Positions 3,561-56,218 of a DNA stretch of 64,000 bases are shown here, in pieces. This DNA comes from an uncultured Alphaproteobacteria bacterium (GTDB lineage Bacteria > Pseudomonadota > Alphaproteobacteria > HIMB59 > GCA-002718135). A program made the position numbers and the translations under genes. Where the stretch lies: positions 336 through 64,335 of the forward strand of contig CABYRH010000005.1 of NCBI GenBank assembly GCA_902521315.1. The letters run 5' to 3'. The first letter of the stretch is position 1, and each line of letters starts with the position of its first letter. The notes beneath the pieces are model-generated. The model was not told where the DNA came from, did not search any database, and was given only the letters and a program-made list of their open reading frames with translations.

Positions 3561-5645
3561 TTATTCTACTTCTTTAACAAAAATATTTTCAAACTTATTT
3601 TCTATAATTCTCATATTATGAATTTTTTTATAAGCTTTTTCTAGGTTAAGTGTATATCTTTTTGCATTGAAATATTTCCCAGATTTCTTAGCTTGATTTA
3701 TTTTATTTTTTATTCTTCTATATTCTATTGGATTATTTGCTAAATATTTAGCTTTATTGAAATATTCTTGTTTAGAATTTGTTACAAGTTCGTTAATTTC
3801 AAAGAAATTTAAAATACTACTGCATACTCTTGAAGCAAAACTATTTCCAACTTTTGTTAATATTGGTAAACCTACCCATAAAGCATCAACAGCAGAAGTA
3901 TGTGCATTACAATTAAAGCTATCTAAGAAAAGATCTGCAATTGTATGTCTTGATAAATGATCCTCTAAATTTGTTTTTTCTACAAAAATTAATCTAGTGC
4001 TATCGATATTTTTTTTATTTGCCTCTTTTTGTAAATTTGATTTCGTAATTTCATCAGATGCCAACAATAATAAAGTTGAATGCTTTACTTCCCTAAGTAA
4101 ATCCATCCAAATACTAAACTCATCTTTTGTAATTTTATATGAATTATTAAAACTACAAAAAACAAAAGAATTTTTTGGTATATTAAAATTTTCCCTAATG
4201 AATTTTTTTTTGCTTATTGTTCTGTTGCTATCCATAGGGAAATAACAATGCGGAAGACAAATAATATTTTCAGAATAATATTTATAGTGATTTTTAGGTA
4301 TTACAAAATTATCACCAATAATGTAATCAACTCCTTCCTGTCCTGTTGTTCCAGCATAACCCAAGAAATTAATTTGAATTGGAGCAACTTTAAGTGAAAA
4401 TATACTACTTCTAGAATTTACAGTTAAGCCGGCTCTATAAATTGCAATATCTATTTTGTTCTCTAAAGATAAATTCAATATCTCTTCATCATCAAGATTA
4501 TTGACATAAAAGAATTTATCAAAATTCTTTATAATCCTTTTATGGGTTTCGTCCTTTTTTATATTCCCATAATAAAATCCTATAATTTCAAATTCATCTT
4601 TATTATGATTTTTAAATATACCTTCCATATTTACCATGCCTGCATGTTGATGAAAATCTGCTGCATAATAACCGATTCTCATTTTTTTATTTAAGTAAGA
4701 ATTGTTATTTTCATTTCTCAAATTGAATTTACTAGAAAATTTTTTTGCTCTAAGGTAGTGGTTATTAATATTATCTTCCATAGATAAACAAAACCATGGA
4801 GATACAGGTTCATCAGAATTTATTGTGTTTATTAAAAGTTGTTCTAAAACTTTTTCATCTGACCAATCACAAAACAATCTTTTTAAAAAATATTTTTGAA
4901 TACCTGCACCTAAAATATTTTTATCCAAACTAAATGCTTTATCAAAACATTGTATAGCTTGTTTATAATCTTTGATTTGAAAAAATAATGCACCTAGATT
5001 GTTATAAGCTTTTGCATATTGTGGATTTATATCAATAGCTTTTTTTAAATAATTAAATGCAAGTTCATAATTATTATCATCTATGTAAAGCAACCCAATA
5101 TTATTTAATGCCTTAATATGACTTGGATTTAACCTTAAAGTTTCAAGTAAATAATTTATTGCTTCCTTATTATTTCCATTTTTTGAAAGTGTAATCGCTA
5201 TATTGTAATATATTTTATCAATTTGATTGTTAAGTTTAATAGCATATTTGTAATTTTTTAATGACTCCTTATAATTGCCTTTATTAAAATTAATAATTCC
5301 TAAATTAAAATAAGTATCATAATTTTTATCATCTAAAATTATCGATTTCTGTAAAATATCAATTGCTTCATCATAAAGATTTATCTCCACAAGACTTTTG
5401 GCAAGATTATTTAATATTTCTGTATTGTTATGATCTATTGCTAATGCCTTTTTATAAAATATGACTGCATTTTCATGATTATTTTTACCTGCATACGAGG
5501 CACCTATCAAATTTGGTATAACAGATATATTATTTATTTCTTTATATAAATCACTTGCATCTTTTATAACCTCATCAAATAAATTTTGGTTAAAAGATGT
5601 AATTAGGTTTAAAATTTTTTTTTCTAATTCTAAATTAATAGACAT
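3561..5645 (-). CDS. TPR-repeat GT41 glycosyltransferase (O-GlcNAc transferase/SPINDLY-like)
   Basis: N-terminal TPRs (YFNLG, YYNIA, LNNIG, YNNLG); RIGYYAADFHQHA, APIQINFLGYAGTTG, FCSFNNSYKI, DLFLDSFNCNAHTSAVDALWVGLP. Confidence 0.9.
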   Translation of the reverse strand: MSINLELEKKILNLITSFNQNLFDEVIKDASDLYKEINNISVIPNLIGASYAGKNNHENAVIFYKKALAIDHNNTEILNNLAKSLVEINLYDEAIDILQKSIILDDKNYDTYFNLGIINFNKGNYKESLKNYKYAIKLNNQIDKIYYNIAITLSKNGNNKEAINYLLETLRLNPSHIKALNNIGLLYIDDNNYELAFNYLKKAIDINPQYAKAYNNLGALFFQIKDYKQAIQCFDKAFSLDKNILGAGIQKYFLKRLFCDWSDEKVLEQLLINTINSDEPVSPWFCLSMEDNINNHYLRAKKFSSKFNLRNENNNSYLNKKMRIGYYAADFHQHAGMVNMEGIFKNHNKDEFEIIGFYYGNIKKDETHKRIIKNFDKFFYVNNLDDEEILNLSLENKIDIAIYRAGLTVNSRSSIFSLKVAPIQINFLGYAGTTGQEGVDYIIGDNFVIPKNHYKYYSENIICLPHCYFPMDSNRTISKKKFIRENFNIPKNSFVFCSFNNSYKITKDEFSIWMDLLREVKHSTLLLLASDEITKSNLQKEANKKNIDSTRLIFVEKTNLEDHLSRHTIADLFLDSFNCNAHTSAVDALWVGLPILTKVGNSFASRVCSSILNFFEINELVTNSKQEYFNKAKYLANNPIEYRRIKNKINQAKKSGKYFNAKRYTLNLEKAYKKIHNMRIIENKFENIFVKEVE

Positions 5646-9487: not shown

Positions 9488-9999
9488 TAATTCGTAATTG
9501 GACCAAGGTTTTATTTGTAATTTCGTTTATCTCAATATCATCAGCATTAATTGCGGAATATTTTTTTAACCTTCAACCTTGTGAGCTATGTTTAAAGCAA
9601 AGACATCCATATTATTTAATTTTAGTATGTTTGGTTTTCATATTTTTTTTTAAAAATTTAAATAAAATCTGGCTTTATTTAGTAATTCAATTTTCATCAG
9701 TTTACGGGCTTTTTTATTCTATATGGCATGTTGGAGTTGAAAATAAAATTCTTAAAGGACCAGCAGGTTGTTCGGCAATGCTGACAAGCAGTGAGAGTGC
9801 TTCAGACCTAAAAGCTCAGATATTATCAAAGCAAGTGATCAATTGCGATGAAGTTATTTGGAGTTTTTTTGGAATTTCTGCTGCTTCAATTAATACACTT
9901 GTTTTACTAGTTATTTTTATTTTTAATGCTATTTATTTGTATAAAAACAATGGCATTAAAAAAGAAAAAAACATCAAAAAAAAATTCTTTATCAAGTAA
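9484..9999 (+). CDS. dsbB: Disulfide bond formation protein B
   Basis: PCELCLKQR motif, second Cys pair (AGC...INCD), 4 TM segments. Confidence 0.88.
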   Translation: MIIRNWTKVLFVISFISISSALIAEYFFNLQPCELCLKQRHPYYLILVCLVFIFFFKNLNKIWLYLVIQFSSVYGLFYSIWHVGVENKILKGPAGCSAMLTSSESASDLKAQILSKQVINCDEVIWSFFGISAASINTLVLLVIFIFNAIYLYKNNGIKKEKNIKKKFFIK

Positions 10000-11809: not shown

Positions 11810-11865
11810 ACTGACCTTATGTATGAATTCTTGCTTCATTCAAGAAAAGTTTTATATAGATATAT

Positions 11866-12060
11866 ATGGGTACAATGCAGATAGTGCTAGTTTTATTTAT
11901 GGCTGCAACTCTAGCTGTCGTAGTCATTGGAGTCATAGCAATGGCTGTAAATGGCAAACTTAATAAAAATCATAGTAATAAGCTAATGCGTTTAAGAGTA
12001 CTTTTTCAAGCTATAGCTATATTTGTTTTTGTTGTTATTGTCTGGCTTGCTAGAAATTAA
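11866..12060 (+). CDS. HIG1-domain twin-transmembrane-helix small protein
   Basis: Two TM helices flanking SNKLMRLRVLFQ. Confidence 0.85.
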   Translation: MGTMQIVLVLFMAATLAVVVIGVIAMAVNGKLNKNHSNKLMRLRVLFQAIAIFVFVVIVWLARN

Positions 12061-12110
12061 AATTTAGAGTCTAGATAAATCATTAATTTTTTAGTATATA
12101 CACGCACACT

Positions 12111-12293
12111 ATGGGAATCCATTTTAATCACAAATCAAGAGCGGGAGACCGCAAAATGCAGAAAGAACTTAAGCTGAAAATGAAGGCTGAGGAACGTAAG
12201 AAAAAACGTGAAGAACAAGAAAAGCTTAAAATGGAAGAAGAAATGCGTAAGCTTGAAGAGCTTACAAGACCTGATAAAGAAGAAAATCAGTAA
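12111..12293 (+). CDS. Hypothetical small charged coiled-coil protein
   Basis: 60-aa ORF with gene-like codon bias (CGT, GAA) and an upstream TATATA element; no family recognised. Confidence 0.7.
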   Translation: MGIHFNHKSRAGDRKMQKELKLKMKAEERKKKREEQEKLKMEEEMRKLEELTRPDKEENQ

Positions 12294-12331
12294 TAACAGA
12301 AATATTAATTATTAAAAATTTTTAAAATTTA

Positions 12332-32323: not shown

Positions 32324-32336
32324 TAAAATTACTTCA

Positions 32337-32672
32337 TTGACAGAAAATATTGTATCAATACTAAGTGATGCAAAAGCTGAAGATATAAAAGTTATTGATT
32401 TATCTAATAAATCATCCGTTGCTGATGCCTTTGTGATTGCTACCTGTAGGTCAACTAGACATTCGGATGCTACAGCAGACGAAATGGTAAAAAAATTAAA
32501 AAAAGCGGGGATAAAGTGTCCAAATCCTGAAGGAAGACCTCAATGTGACTGGATAATTGTTGATGCAGGTGAGATTATTGTTCATTTGTTTCGACAAGAA
32601 ATTAGAGAATTATATGCATTAGAAAAATTATGGGAAGTAAGCTTTGATTCTTCACAAACTAAACTAGCTTAA
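32337..32672 (+). CDS. rsfS: Ribosome silencing factor
   Basis: KAEDI, WIIVDAGEIIVHLF, RELYALEKLW; TTG start. Confidence 0.92.
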   Translation: MTENIVSILSDAKAEDIKVIDLSNKSSVADAFVIATCRSTRHSDATADEMVKKLKKAGIKCPNPEGRPQCDWIIVDAGEIIVHLFRQEIRELYALEKLWEVSFDSSQTKLA

Positions 32673-32677
32673 AATAT

Positions 32678-54192: not shown

Positions 54193-54522
54193 CTAAAACA
54201 CCATTCTCACTAAATTAACAGTAATTAAAATCATGATAAAATAAATAAGATAATTAATTGATACTTTAATAAATTTGGCTATCTTTTTCGATGTGACATA
54301 ATCTTCAATAATTGTTTGCAGTCCTAATTTTGAATGCAGAAGCATAGATTGCATCATAACAAAAAATAAGAATGCATTAAAATAGGATTGAAAAAAAGTT
54401 TCTATTTCAGAATAAGTCATCTTAGATAATGATATTGCTGAGTATATAAACCAAAACGCCAAAGGTATTAAAATTGAAGCAGTAATTCTTTGGGTTAACC
54501 ATTTAAGAGCATAATTTTTCAT
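54193..54522 (-). CDS. sdhD: Succinate dehydrogenase membrane anchor
   Basis: WLTQRITA, H..LGLQTIIEDYV. Confidence 0.92.
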   Translation of the reverse strand: MKNYALKWLTQRITASILIPLAFWFIYSAISLSKMTYSEIETFFQSYFNAFLFFVMMQSMLLHSKLGLQTIIEDYVTSKKIAKFIKVSINYLIYFIMILITVNLVRMVF

Positions 54523-54899
54523 GCAAAATACCAGACAACTAAACTAGAAATTAGAGTTAAACATATAACAGCATAACCAGATTTATATACTTGAGATAAT
54601 TCCATTCCAATACCGAATGACCAATATAATTTTCTACATCCATTAAATAAATGGTAAAAAATACCGACAGTCCAAATCATTAGAACTAGTTTAAACAAAA
54701 TACTTTTAGAAAGAATTTCAAAATAAATATAAAATTCAGGACCAAAACTAATTAATAAAAACCAAATTGAAATTAATATTGCGCCCACACTTAATCCAAT
54801 TCCTGATATCCTATGAAAAATTGAAAATACTGCTGTAAGTACTCTTTTGTGAATAGATAGGTGAGGTGATAATGGTCTATTATCAGTCATTTTTTTCAT
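54519..54899 (-). CDS. sdhC: Succinate dehydrogenase cytochrome b556 subunit
   Basis: NRPLSPHL, SIFHRISG, YHLFNG.R. Confidence 0.93.
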   Translation of the reverse strand: MKKMTDNRPLSPHLSIHKRVLTAVFSIFHRISGIGLSVGAILISIWFLLISFGPEFYIYFEILSKSILFKLVLMIWTVGIFYHLFNGCRKLYWSFGIGMELSQVYKSGYAVICLTLISSLVVWYFA

Positions 54900-55057
54900 T
54901 TTTCTTATGTTTCATAAGTAAGTATTTTTCTTCAAATTTCAAAATATTAATGTTTTAGTTATTTTTTCTTACTATCATGGAAGTTTATAAAATGTTGATA
55001 AAAGTGGCAAATTTTATGAAAATCGACCAAATTTAATACCAGATTTAACTAAAAATC

Positions 55058-55086
55058 TTGAATTTTAAATAGATAGATATTACTCT
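55058..55086 (+). promoter_or_regulatory. Putative sigma70 promoter driving the structured ncRNA
   Basis: TTGAAT-N17-TACTCT, ending 6 nt before the terminal stem GCCGGA. Confidence 0.55.
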
Positions 55087-55090
55087 TAAT

Positions 55091-55230
55091 AAGCCGGATA
55101 ATACTCGTTTCTTAGCTTCGGAGGAACGCCAAGAATTTTTAATTATCTTACCCGCCGTTTGATAATTATTTGAGTTTCTTATTCTAGAGAGGTGTCTGCC
55201 AAGGTACAAACTAGTTTTAGAGTCCGGCCT
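55091..55230 (+). ncRNA. Putative structured ncRNA, rod-shaped with central bubble (6S RNA-like architecture)
   Basis: GC-richer island in an AT-rich spacer. Nested pairings GCCGGAT/GTCCGGC, ACT-GTTT/AAAC-AGT, CTT-GC/GC-AAG, ACGCC/GGTGT, AAGAA/TTCTT, TAATTATC/GATAATTA. No ORF. Confidence 0.6.
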
Positions 55231-56218
55231 ATTTTAAATTTTTATTAAAAAATTCTTCCATCTTTTTAGAATATACTTCTGGAAATTTAAACATAGCATC
55301 TACATGATAAGAGTTTTCAACTAACCAAAACTCAGCATTAATTTTATTTTGATTTGTATATTCTTTAAAATAATTAAAGTGTCTTGTTAAAATTCTTGTA
55401 TCAGAGTCGCCATGAGTAAAATAATAGTATTGTTTCTTTGATAATTTTTTAGCTGGAGATAATTCTCTTGGATCTGTTCCAGTTAAGATTCTTCCAGCTA
55501 AACTAACTACTGGCCCAAATTCTATAGTAAGACCATATCTTGCTATTTCATCTTTTAAAATCATATTAAATTCAGCAAGTGAACTATCTGCCCACACTGC
55601 ACGTATTTCCGGTTCTGAATTAGCTGCAAAAATAGACGTGCTTGCACCAAGAGATATTCCATGTAATCCAATGCTATACGACTTGAAACCAATTTTTTTT
55701 AAAAAATCAAATGCACCAAGAATATCATTATATGACTTTAAACCTAAATCATCGTAGCTACTTACAGTATCACTTTGTCCATAGTTTCTTAAATCTATCG
55801 TCAGAACATTAAACTTTTTATTAACTAAAAAACTTGCAATTAGATTGGGTTCAGACTTACATTTACCATTTGGGCTTATACCATGTGTTACAATTATAAC
55901 GGGTCTATTTGGAAAATAATTAAAAAGCCATCCATTAATCTTAATATCAGAATCACGAGATTGAAAATACACATCTTGCCATTCATCTAAATAATAGTCC
56001 TTAAAGTTAAAATTTTCTCTTACTTTTTGTCGTGCAAGAATTGAGTATTCATGTGAATCAACTGTTGTACTCCATGAATTAGGAAGAGATCCTTCGTGCA
56101 AACCACAAGTTGGATCTATTTTTAAAATTTGGTAAGCAACATAAAAGCCTGCAGTAAAATAAACTACTATTAATAAAACTATCGTACTTACTAATAATCT
56201 GATTATGTATTTCATCAA
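55229..56218 (-). CDS. Membrane-anchored alpha/beta hydrolase
   Basis: N-terminal TM, THG, DLRNYGQS, GISLG nucleophile, THGDSD, YHVDA. Confidence 0.82.
   Translation of the reverse strand: MMKYIIRLLVSTIVLLIVVYFTAGFYVAYQILKIDPTCGLHEGSLPNSWSTTVDSHEYSILARQKVRENFNFKDYYLDEWQDVYFQSRDSDIKINGWLFNYFPNRPVIIVTHGISPNGKCKSEPNLIASFLVNKKFNVLTIDLRNYGQSDTVSSYDDLGLKSYNDILGAFDFLKKIGFKSYSIGLHGISLGASTSIFAANSEPEIRAVWADSSLAEFNMILKDEIARYGLTIEFGPVVSLAGRILTGTDPRELSPAKKLSKKQYYYFTHGDSDTRILTRHFNYFKEYTNQNKINAEFWLVENSYHVDAMFKFPEVYSKKMEEFFNKNLK

Follow-up and report, generated by a model that had tools for sequence, protein, structure and literature searches.

What is encoded in the spacer between sdhC and the neighbouring alpha/beta hydrolase gene of this marine alphaproteobacterium, and what might the product do? 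The window, i.e. the whole stretch of 64,000 nt that was analysed, contains a 329-nt spacer at this place, the right half of which was proposed in an earlier note to encode either a minimised, divergent 6S RNA or an undescribed small RNA (sRNA) transcribed divergently from sdhCDAB-mdh-suc. The G+C content of the RNA half is 40%, as compared to 19% in the left half of the spacer and 31% in the window. We find that the locus is a real, stand-alone sRNA gene on the + strand, which is divergent from sdhC, has its own predicted promoter and has no match in Rfam (Table 1). Promoter conservation, RNA contigs, synteny and the lacking Rfam match thus all support the second proposal, and the RNA represents an uncatalogued family, whose role is most likely antisense regulation of several targets and not that of 6S RNA. 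The spacer is, however, not the largest one of the window, as had been stated, but ranks fourth among the gaps of a crude ORF map. Three gaps are bigger, 492 nt (11840-12331), 438 nt (9488-9925) and 354 nt (32324-32677) in length, and may contain short genes, genes with non-ATG starts or further RNAs.

Table 1. Features of the sRNA locus and its surroundings (window coordinates).
Feature	Position	Strand	Evidence or remark
sRNA gene, ~137 nt, closed multibranch fold	55093..55229	+	covariance model, homolog folds, adapter-bounded RNA contigs
-35 hexamer TTGAAT of predicted sRNA promoter	55058..55063	+	TTG(A/T)A kept while spacer diverges
Predicted -10 hexamer TACTCT (TAnnnT), 17-nt spacer after -35	55081..55086	+	
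P1 closing stem, 5' strand	55093..55099	+	pairs with 55222-55228; 100% of cells paired, two-sided changes in 4/7 pairs
P1 closing stem, 3' strand	55222..55228	+	T-rich run 3' of it in divergent homologs
P2 helix, 55103-55106 with 55172-55175, encloses P3 and P4	55103..55175	+	homolog folds
P3 hairpin	55109..55135	+	invariant GGAGGAAC at 55120-55127; candidate seed for basic-ORF leader
P4 hairpin	55140..55168	+	invariant loop CCGCCG at 55152-55157; candidate seed for ftsZ ribosome-binding site
P5 hairpin	55184..55214	+	55186-55201, 16-nt antisense match to MarR-family gene start
sdhC, first gene of sdhCDAB-mdh-suc string, divergent from RNA	54519..54899	-	PF01127
alpha/beta hydrolase gene, convergent with RNA	55229..56218	-	PF00561
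DnaA-box-like 9-mer between divergent sdhC and sRNA promoters	54993..55001	.	one mismatch

The TTGAAT-N17-TACTCT promoter that had been noted 6 nt ahead of the stem is present, and the pattern TTG(A/T)A, TAnnnT, 4-8 nt and stem fits 31 of 35 homologs; with 8 of 12 matches the site was not listed by a consensus promoter scan. At the other end, divergent homolog copies run into a T-run after the closing stem. Among 24 sequencing runs listed, the stretch is wholly or partly present in 20, 12 of which are recorded as RNA. Assembled RNA contigs were inspected in seven runs chosen because the stretch was present, and contigs from runs chosen in this way indicate level, strand and ends not strictly. 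In run X12 a contig covers 55104-55227 at a depth of 822 with adapters at both ends, two further contigs end at 55228 and 55229, and the flanking contigs reach depths of 3-10. The start at 55104 is common to runs X12, X13, X14 and X10, which belong to four metatranscriptome studies, and lies 11 nt inside the predicted RNA start at 55093, an offset that may reflect library trimming, an artefact or processing. No discrete high-depth contig covers the sRNA in runs X1, X2 and X9; run X2 consists of one flat 1.5-kb contig and may be DNA. What characterises a trans-encoded sRNA, i.e. an independent unit giving a discrete small RNA, is thus found here (promoter in 31/35 homologs, contigs from 55104 to 55227-55229).

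As to the strand, the right-end adapter of the sRNA contigs in X12 is the left-end adapter of a minus-strand mdh fragment, and this opposite orientation, calibrated on that one fragment, places the RNA on the + strand. Folding energy does not decide the matter, since both strands fold better than shuffled controls, if modestly (+ strand, z -2.28, 6/200 shuffles as good; - strand, z -2.84, 0/200). The stop codon of the hydrolase gene on the opposite strand abuts the closing stem, and sdhC is the neighbour of the RNA in every homolog locus examined. This position directly after the hydrolase stop codon and always upstream of sdhC, combined with a minus strand that folds as well as the plus strand, would also suit a cis-element (leader, riboswitch or terminator) of a minus-strand hydrolase-to-sdh transcript. 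Yet the conserved promoter and the 3' T-run indicate the + strand, the adapters in X12 are oriented opposite to those of the mdh fragment, the RNA is kept in a genome (G072) where the hydrolase gene is replaced, and it is the + strand that complements the targets discussed below, rendering a cis-element scarcely credible.

Records bearing homologs derive from marine alphaproteobacteria labelled uncultured, Pelagibacteraceae/Pelagibacterales or HIMB59. We split the order HIMB59/AEGEAN-169 into two families, f1, to which the source genome (G000) belongs, and its sister f2; since the HIMB59 order comprises two GTDB families, as stated in the available text of PMC10734472, f1 is probably GCA-002718135. 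BLASTN detects the element in 22 of the 37 genomes that represent the genus, a count that includes G000, with identical neighbours in all of them, and a covariance model built from 16 distinct copies (R1) identifies a single-copy, syntenic RNA in 43 of 50 f1 genomes, but in none of 50 f2 and none of 150 other alphaproteobacterial genomes. G072 gives a weak match at the syntenic place (E 0.014, filters off), where the RNA is kept next to the gene that replaces the hydrolase. Within the genus the mean column identity of the RNA is 87%, whereas that of the adjoining hydrolase protein falls to ~65%. Seven of 17 oddly labelled pattern matches run against the model fit it. One of the seven is a full copy of the RNA on a contig of a Flavobacteriaceae-labelled MAG (L207), which is probably mis-binned, and the hydrolase gene looks split in L019 and L278. 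Phage copies were dropped as a possibility: at least 120 viral loci carry the 14-mer, both motifs occur in 4 of the 120 listed, and none of these resembles the RNA.

At the Rfam gathering cut-off the whole window yields two tRNAs and nothing else, the region gives six sub-threshold chance matches at E<=10, and nine homolog loci give one tRNA at E<=1. A 2009 study of ocean psRNAs (Shi et al.) reportedly contains unnamed groups, with which the sRNA may overlap. The RNA is nowhere described in the literature searched, which included the available text of PMC2704228, PMC5069720, PMC10308909 and PMC10734472, most subscription papers lying outside its scope.

The structure of the RNA bears directly on the 6S proposal. 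Both stems that had been recognised, the closing stem GCCGGAT/GTCCGGC (P1, Table 1) and a perfect 8-bp stem (TAATTATC, 55140-55147, with GATAATTA, 55161-55168), are present, but a single long rod is not borne out: three hairpins make up the minimum-energy fold, rods account for 25% of the ensemble of this copy and for at most 5% in 15 of 21 homologs, and 18 of the 21 are dominated by folds having at least three hairpins. In a 20-sequence alignment 94% of the cells are paired in the branched model (P1-P5) as compared to 84% in the rod. Both models beat shuffles, partly via the closing and apical stems that they share, so that pair counts alone do not decide between them. The 18-pair long-range helix of the rod connects two blocks that hardly vary and has a two-sided change in only one cell, and in G072 the 3' block that the rod needs, i.e. 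half of the proposed rod including P5, is absent while P1, P3 and P4 are kept. P2 is the least well supported helix of the branched model (74% paired on the MAFFT alignment). In the G000 copy the rod conformer is ~1 kcal/mol above the best fold, and P3 and P5 often pair mutually (9.1 expected pairs), which would hide both seeds.

A divergent, minimised 6S RNA that binds the RNA polymerase holoenzyme as a rod, alone or beside base pairing, would likewise be stand-alone, closed end to end and driven by its own promoter, and would match the high-depth contigs and the rod conformer possible in the G000 copy. In this copy the rod comes to within ~1 kcal/mol of the optimum, and 84% of its cells are paired in 20 homologs, so that covariation alone does not exclude it; according to the accessible part of PMC8876501, truncated 6S-1 variants whose arms are short retain cycling in vitro. 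Furthermore, Rfam 6S is found in 0 of 101 genomes of the order, 22 of them at least 90% complete, with RNase P RNA in 79 of the same 101 and with the 6S model scoring above cut-off in 4 of 14 known genomes used as control. This leaves room for an unrecognised 6S, yet provides no positive link to the sRNA. Against 6S RNA stands that neither the region nor the genome has a match to RF00013 at E<=10, the check that had been suggested, that most homologs are branched rather than forming a conserved unbranched rod with a central bubble, that the long-range helix is poor in two-sided changes and lacks its 3' partner block in G072, and that the invariant blocks have complements in mRNAs. The gene also lies between sdhC and the hydrolase gene and not next to ygfA/zapA, which we take to be the usual, although not universal, place of the 6S gene. 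Taken together, a 6S identity is very unlikely.

Other housekeeping RNAs were considered and dropped. RNase P RNA is missing from the G000 assembly and present in element-bearing relatives, e.g. G023, G028 and G036. A minimal RNase P was rejected on account of its RNA being found in 79/101 genomes of the order, rnpA being present and no HARP-type domain being found, and a stand-in for SRP RNA or tmRNA was rejected as both are located elsewhere in G000.

If not a decoy of RNA polymerase, what might the invariant blocks recognise? We scanned 1471 start windows, derived from a crude ORF call, with the three blocks; this set initially contained neither ftsZ, which runs off contig C24, nor the small basic ORF described below. 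P5 and the start of the gene at G000:C11:10580-11041(-) gave -30.9 kcal/mol, the best value of 1471 (mean -9.0, sd 2.9, next -21.5), and in full-length co-folding, where the RNA's own fold is paid for, the gene still ranked first of 1463 (-14.3; next -8.8). It encodes a MarR-family protein (PF01047, PF12802) and is flanked by a gene pair for ferredoxin reductase and ferredoxin and by class I lysS. With the G000 protein as query, orthologs were found in 25 of 29 f1 genomes and in 0 of 6 f2 genomes. In 24 of 25 genomes with P5, from six genera and with MarR identities down to 44%, at least 16 contiguous pairs extend from the U of AUG; the exception, G078, retains 12 contiguous and 15 of 16 pairs, with a change in the RNA that is not compensated.

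The codons within the duplex are constrained at silent positions. The third positions of MarR codons 2, 4 and 5 are invariant in 25/25 genomes, as compared to 0.44-0.85 at 16 other fourfold sites, and codon 3 is GAC in 20 of 24 cases of Asp, versus 6 of 141 at other places in these genes and 14% over the whole genome. Moreover, in G072, which is devoid of P5, the MarR ortholog starts with the unrelated sequence MNSNNL. The P5/MarR duplex is hence marked by conservation, G-U-compatible changes and one co-loss, with no two-sided compensatory change among the genomes compared; as these genomes are related, the counts overstate independence, and the co-loss in G072 is a single event. Overall, the MarR-family gene is probably a target of the sRNA. 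Just upstream of its start, a tandem palindrome (TTGTATACAA-like; L299:4546-4570, G000:C11:11045-11069) is found in 26/26 genomes, which is likely the gene's own operator. The G000 genome has no clear second copy, and the idea of a MarR regulon was dropped, the tandem operator being convincing at the gene's own promoter only. A Shine-Dalgarno word is absent in all 26 MarR genes, which, together with the palindrome, suggests an autoregulated, nearly leaderless marR mRNA.

For loop P4 the candidate partner is the leader of ftsZ (PF00091), which carries AAACGGCGGAG (candidate site at G000:C24:4087). The element CGGCGGAG is located upstream of ftsZ in 24/24 f1 relatives and in G000, and complements the CCGCCG loop in 25/25. 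In f2 the ftsZ site reads TGCGGGG in 6/6 genomes, and an RNA at the same sdhC-side position has the loop CCCCGCA in 4/4 checked, i.e. loop and site have changed on both sides between the families and complementarity is kept. TGCGGGG precedes an ATG 1-5 times per genome, with ftsZ among these genes in 5/5. CGGCGG does so 3-13 times per genome, no more often than the reversed control. The seed is short (6-9 bp), and the Shine-Dalgarno site with which it overlaps would be under constraint in any case. On this basis ftsZ is a fairly probable target. A hairpin, TTGACG...CGTTAA, is kept just upstream of the f1 ftsZ ribosome-binding site (L356, G000:C24 ~4045-4075), and a different hairpin is found at the same place in f2.

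The f2 element is a closed multibranch of 80-95 nt beside sdhC and upstream of a TRAP transporter gene (L291:2020-2112; L292-L294; L387 onward) and has no match in Rfam. Its stems covary in metagenome copies (the element was accepted at 48 of 100 pattern loci), which were located by the loop, so that loop invariance among them is given by construction. Homology to the f1 RNA is argued from position and architecture only, model R1 giving 0/50 matches in f2.

P3 has a weaker candidate target, the leader of a small basic-protein gene, which we put forward tentatively and consider somewhat doubtful. In the computed duplex P3 pairs over ~12 bp with GTTCCTCCGGGG (site G000:C5:90901) in the leader of an ORF of 58 aa that is rich in Lys, Ala and Pro and is flanked by acnA and ccmA (G000:C5:90936-91112; L355:1437-1613). 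GGTTCCTCC occurs in the leader of 23/24 f1 loci with the ORF and in 0/4 f2 loci, whose RNA has no P3; the count omits G016 and G026, where the flank is missing, and G069 and G043 are without the ORF in the locus. The site forms one strand of a leader hairpin, the other strand of which varies, and is found 30-38 nt ahead of the start codon, clear of the Shine-Dalgarno sequence. G072 retains GGAGGAA in P3 and has lost the leader site. The ORF, which has no Pfam match, contains AAPKKKKK repeats, has a structured leader, is conserved in both families and is histone- or protamine-like by composition.

Could the complementarities be fortuitous? Short seeds of high G+C content find few chance matches, conservation of the MarR N-terminus could lie at the protein level, the P5 duplex is without two-sided change, and P3 has a GGA loop of the kind that is presumably bound by CsrA. 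All this would be compatible with a protein-binding or housekeeping RNA whose matches arise by chance between conserved G+C-rich motifs in an A+T-rich genome. This is highly improbable given that the MarR match is ~7.5 sd beyond the genome mean, that silent sites do not vary and a rare codon is favoured, that P5 and its site were lost together in G072 and that ftsZ site and loop changed on both sides between the families. CsrA was not above cut-off in G000, and a CsrA sponge was therefore dropped.

Rather, conserved seeds complementary to the initiation regions of unlinked mRNAs are what is found, as in trans-acting sRNAs. Hfq (PF17209) was detected in 0 of 41 genomes, including 0 of 21 that are at least 90% complete, by which measure the RNA does not classify as Hfq-dependent; long or G+C-rich seeds would thus have to suffice. 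We consider it likely, from sequence and its conservation, that this branched, stand-alone sRNA, the arms of which are complementary to mRNAs of other genes, mediates Hfq-free trans regulation by base pairing. Pairing in the cell, repression as its outcome and the inducing signal are what we infer here. A sigma-70-type promoter of its own would drive transcription of the sRNA in the direction leading away from sdhC. P5 would then unfold and pair over 16 bp with the marR mRNA, from the U of AUG to codon 6, blocking translation of this message, which is without a Shine-Dalgarno sequence, while loop P4 would pair with the atypical ftsZ ribosome-binding site and limit FtsZ synthesis, and P3 may pair with the leader hairpin of the gene for the small, very basic (histone-like) protein.

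The pairings might also be real and have another outcome, the target being stabilised or activated, or an mRNA such as marR acting as a sponge that unfolds the sRNA and removes it. The P3 site is located 30-38 nt 5' of the start codon, and sequence gives no direction. A perfect 16-bp duplex, moreover, could trigger cleavage of both RNAs. As the P5 site spans the AUG and the P4 site the ribosome-binding site, where pairing normally blocks initiation, and as DicF represses ftsZ by pairing at the ribosome-binding site (described in the available part of PMC5069750), we regard such outcomes as quite unlikely and favour repression.

By the tests run, the sRNA is not a member of any of three known systems that are close to it. 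EcpR1 (SmelC291) from Sinorhizobium meliloti, as far as set out in the available text of PMC4414408, is also an alphaproteobacterial, Hfq-independent trans-acting sRNA directed at cell-cycle mRNAs and acts via a G+C-rich loop, UCCGCCGCAUCU, the core of which, CCGCCG, is shared by the P4 loop. In contrast to the sRNA, it consists of two hairpins, is encoded 3' of divK-pleD and acts as a repressor of gcrA and dnaA, with ftsZ being a predicted target but not regulated (PMC4414408). The RNA described here is a closed multibranch beside sdhC, model R1 matches 0/150 other alphaproteobacterial genomes, and of loop, two hairpins and divK-pleD position only the CCGCCG core is found. gcrA and dnaA were rejected as EcpR1-like targets, forming weak duplexes with P4 (-9.7 and -9.4). 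DicF from E. coli resembles the sRNA in pairing at the ftsZ ribosome-binding site and in using separate parts for separate targets, but the account in PMC5069750, as available, has it prophage-encoded, processed, 53-72 nt long and Hfq-dependent, whereas the sRNA is a single-copy core gene of a lineage that is Hfq-less so far as searched and has no Rfam link. SAR11 sRNA-1/PBC-3, finally, is likewise an orphan candidate and comes from a marine alphaproteobacterium with a streamlined genome. Its loop, GAGGGAG, is rich in purines and complementary to a leader of pyrimidine-rich sequence that precedes genes for cytochrome c biogenesis (available text of PMC6429828), a situation paralleled by P3, which complements a leader just upstream of ccmA. 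Compared by their descriptions, the two RNAs differ in motif, flanking genes and fold, SAR11 sRNA-1 having two hairpins with GAAUCA between them (PMC6429828).

Streamlined marine alphaproteobacteria keep very few regulators. A core sRNA with co-evolving targets would show that multi-target antisense regulation can outlive genome reduction without a chaperone, probably via long or G+C-rich seeds. It would also give a handle on division control in slow-growing, abundant cells that is readable in ocean metatranscriptomes, and the loop/ftsZ pair comes with a natural compensatory variant.

The control region in front of the sRNA may say something about its input. The 9-mer between the divergent promoters (Table 1) was identified with what we take to be the DnaA box consensus, and a tandem pair of such 9-mers, 3 nt apart (spacers of L017, L018 and L278-L284), is found in 15 of 35 homologs, with a single box in most others; in this genome the pair is reduced to one mismatched box. 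The pair hints at a cell-cycle input. One might therefore speculate about a modular, chaperone-free hub, in which an ancestral, order-wide core loop co-evolves with the ftsZ site, arms are gained or lost with their targets (MarR, histone-like protein), a DnaA-box-bearing control region also serves the TCA superoperon, and the rod formed by P3 and P5 acts as an off state in which two seeds are concealed. As a whole, this extended reading is rather unlikely; if true, a single RNA would link replication and respiration with cell division, the packing of the nucleoid and a stress regulon. A replication origin at the spacer was dropped, there being no genome-wide box cluster and the skew being uninformative, and the conserved pair remains. 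A word similar to the DnaA-box-like 9-mer also occurs in f2 spacers.
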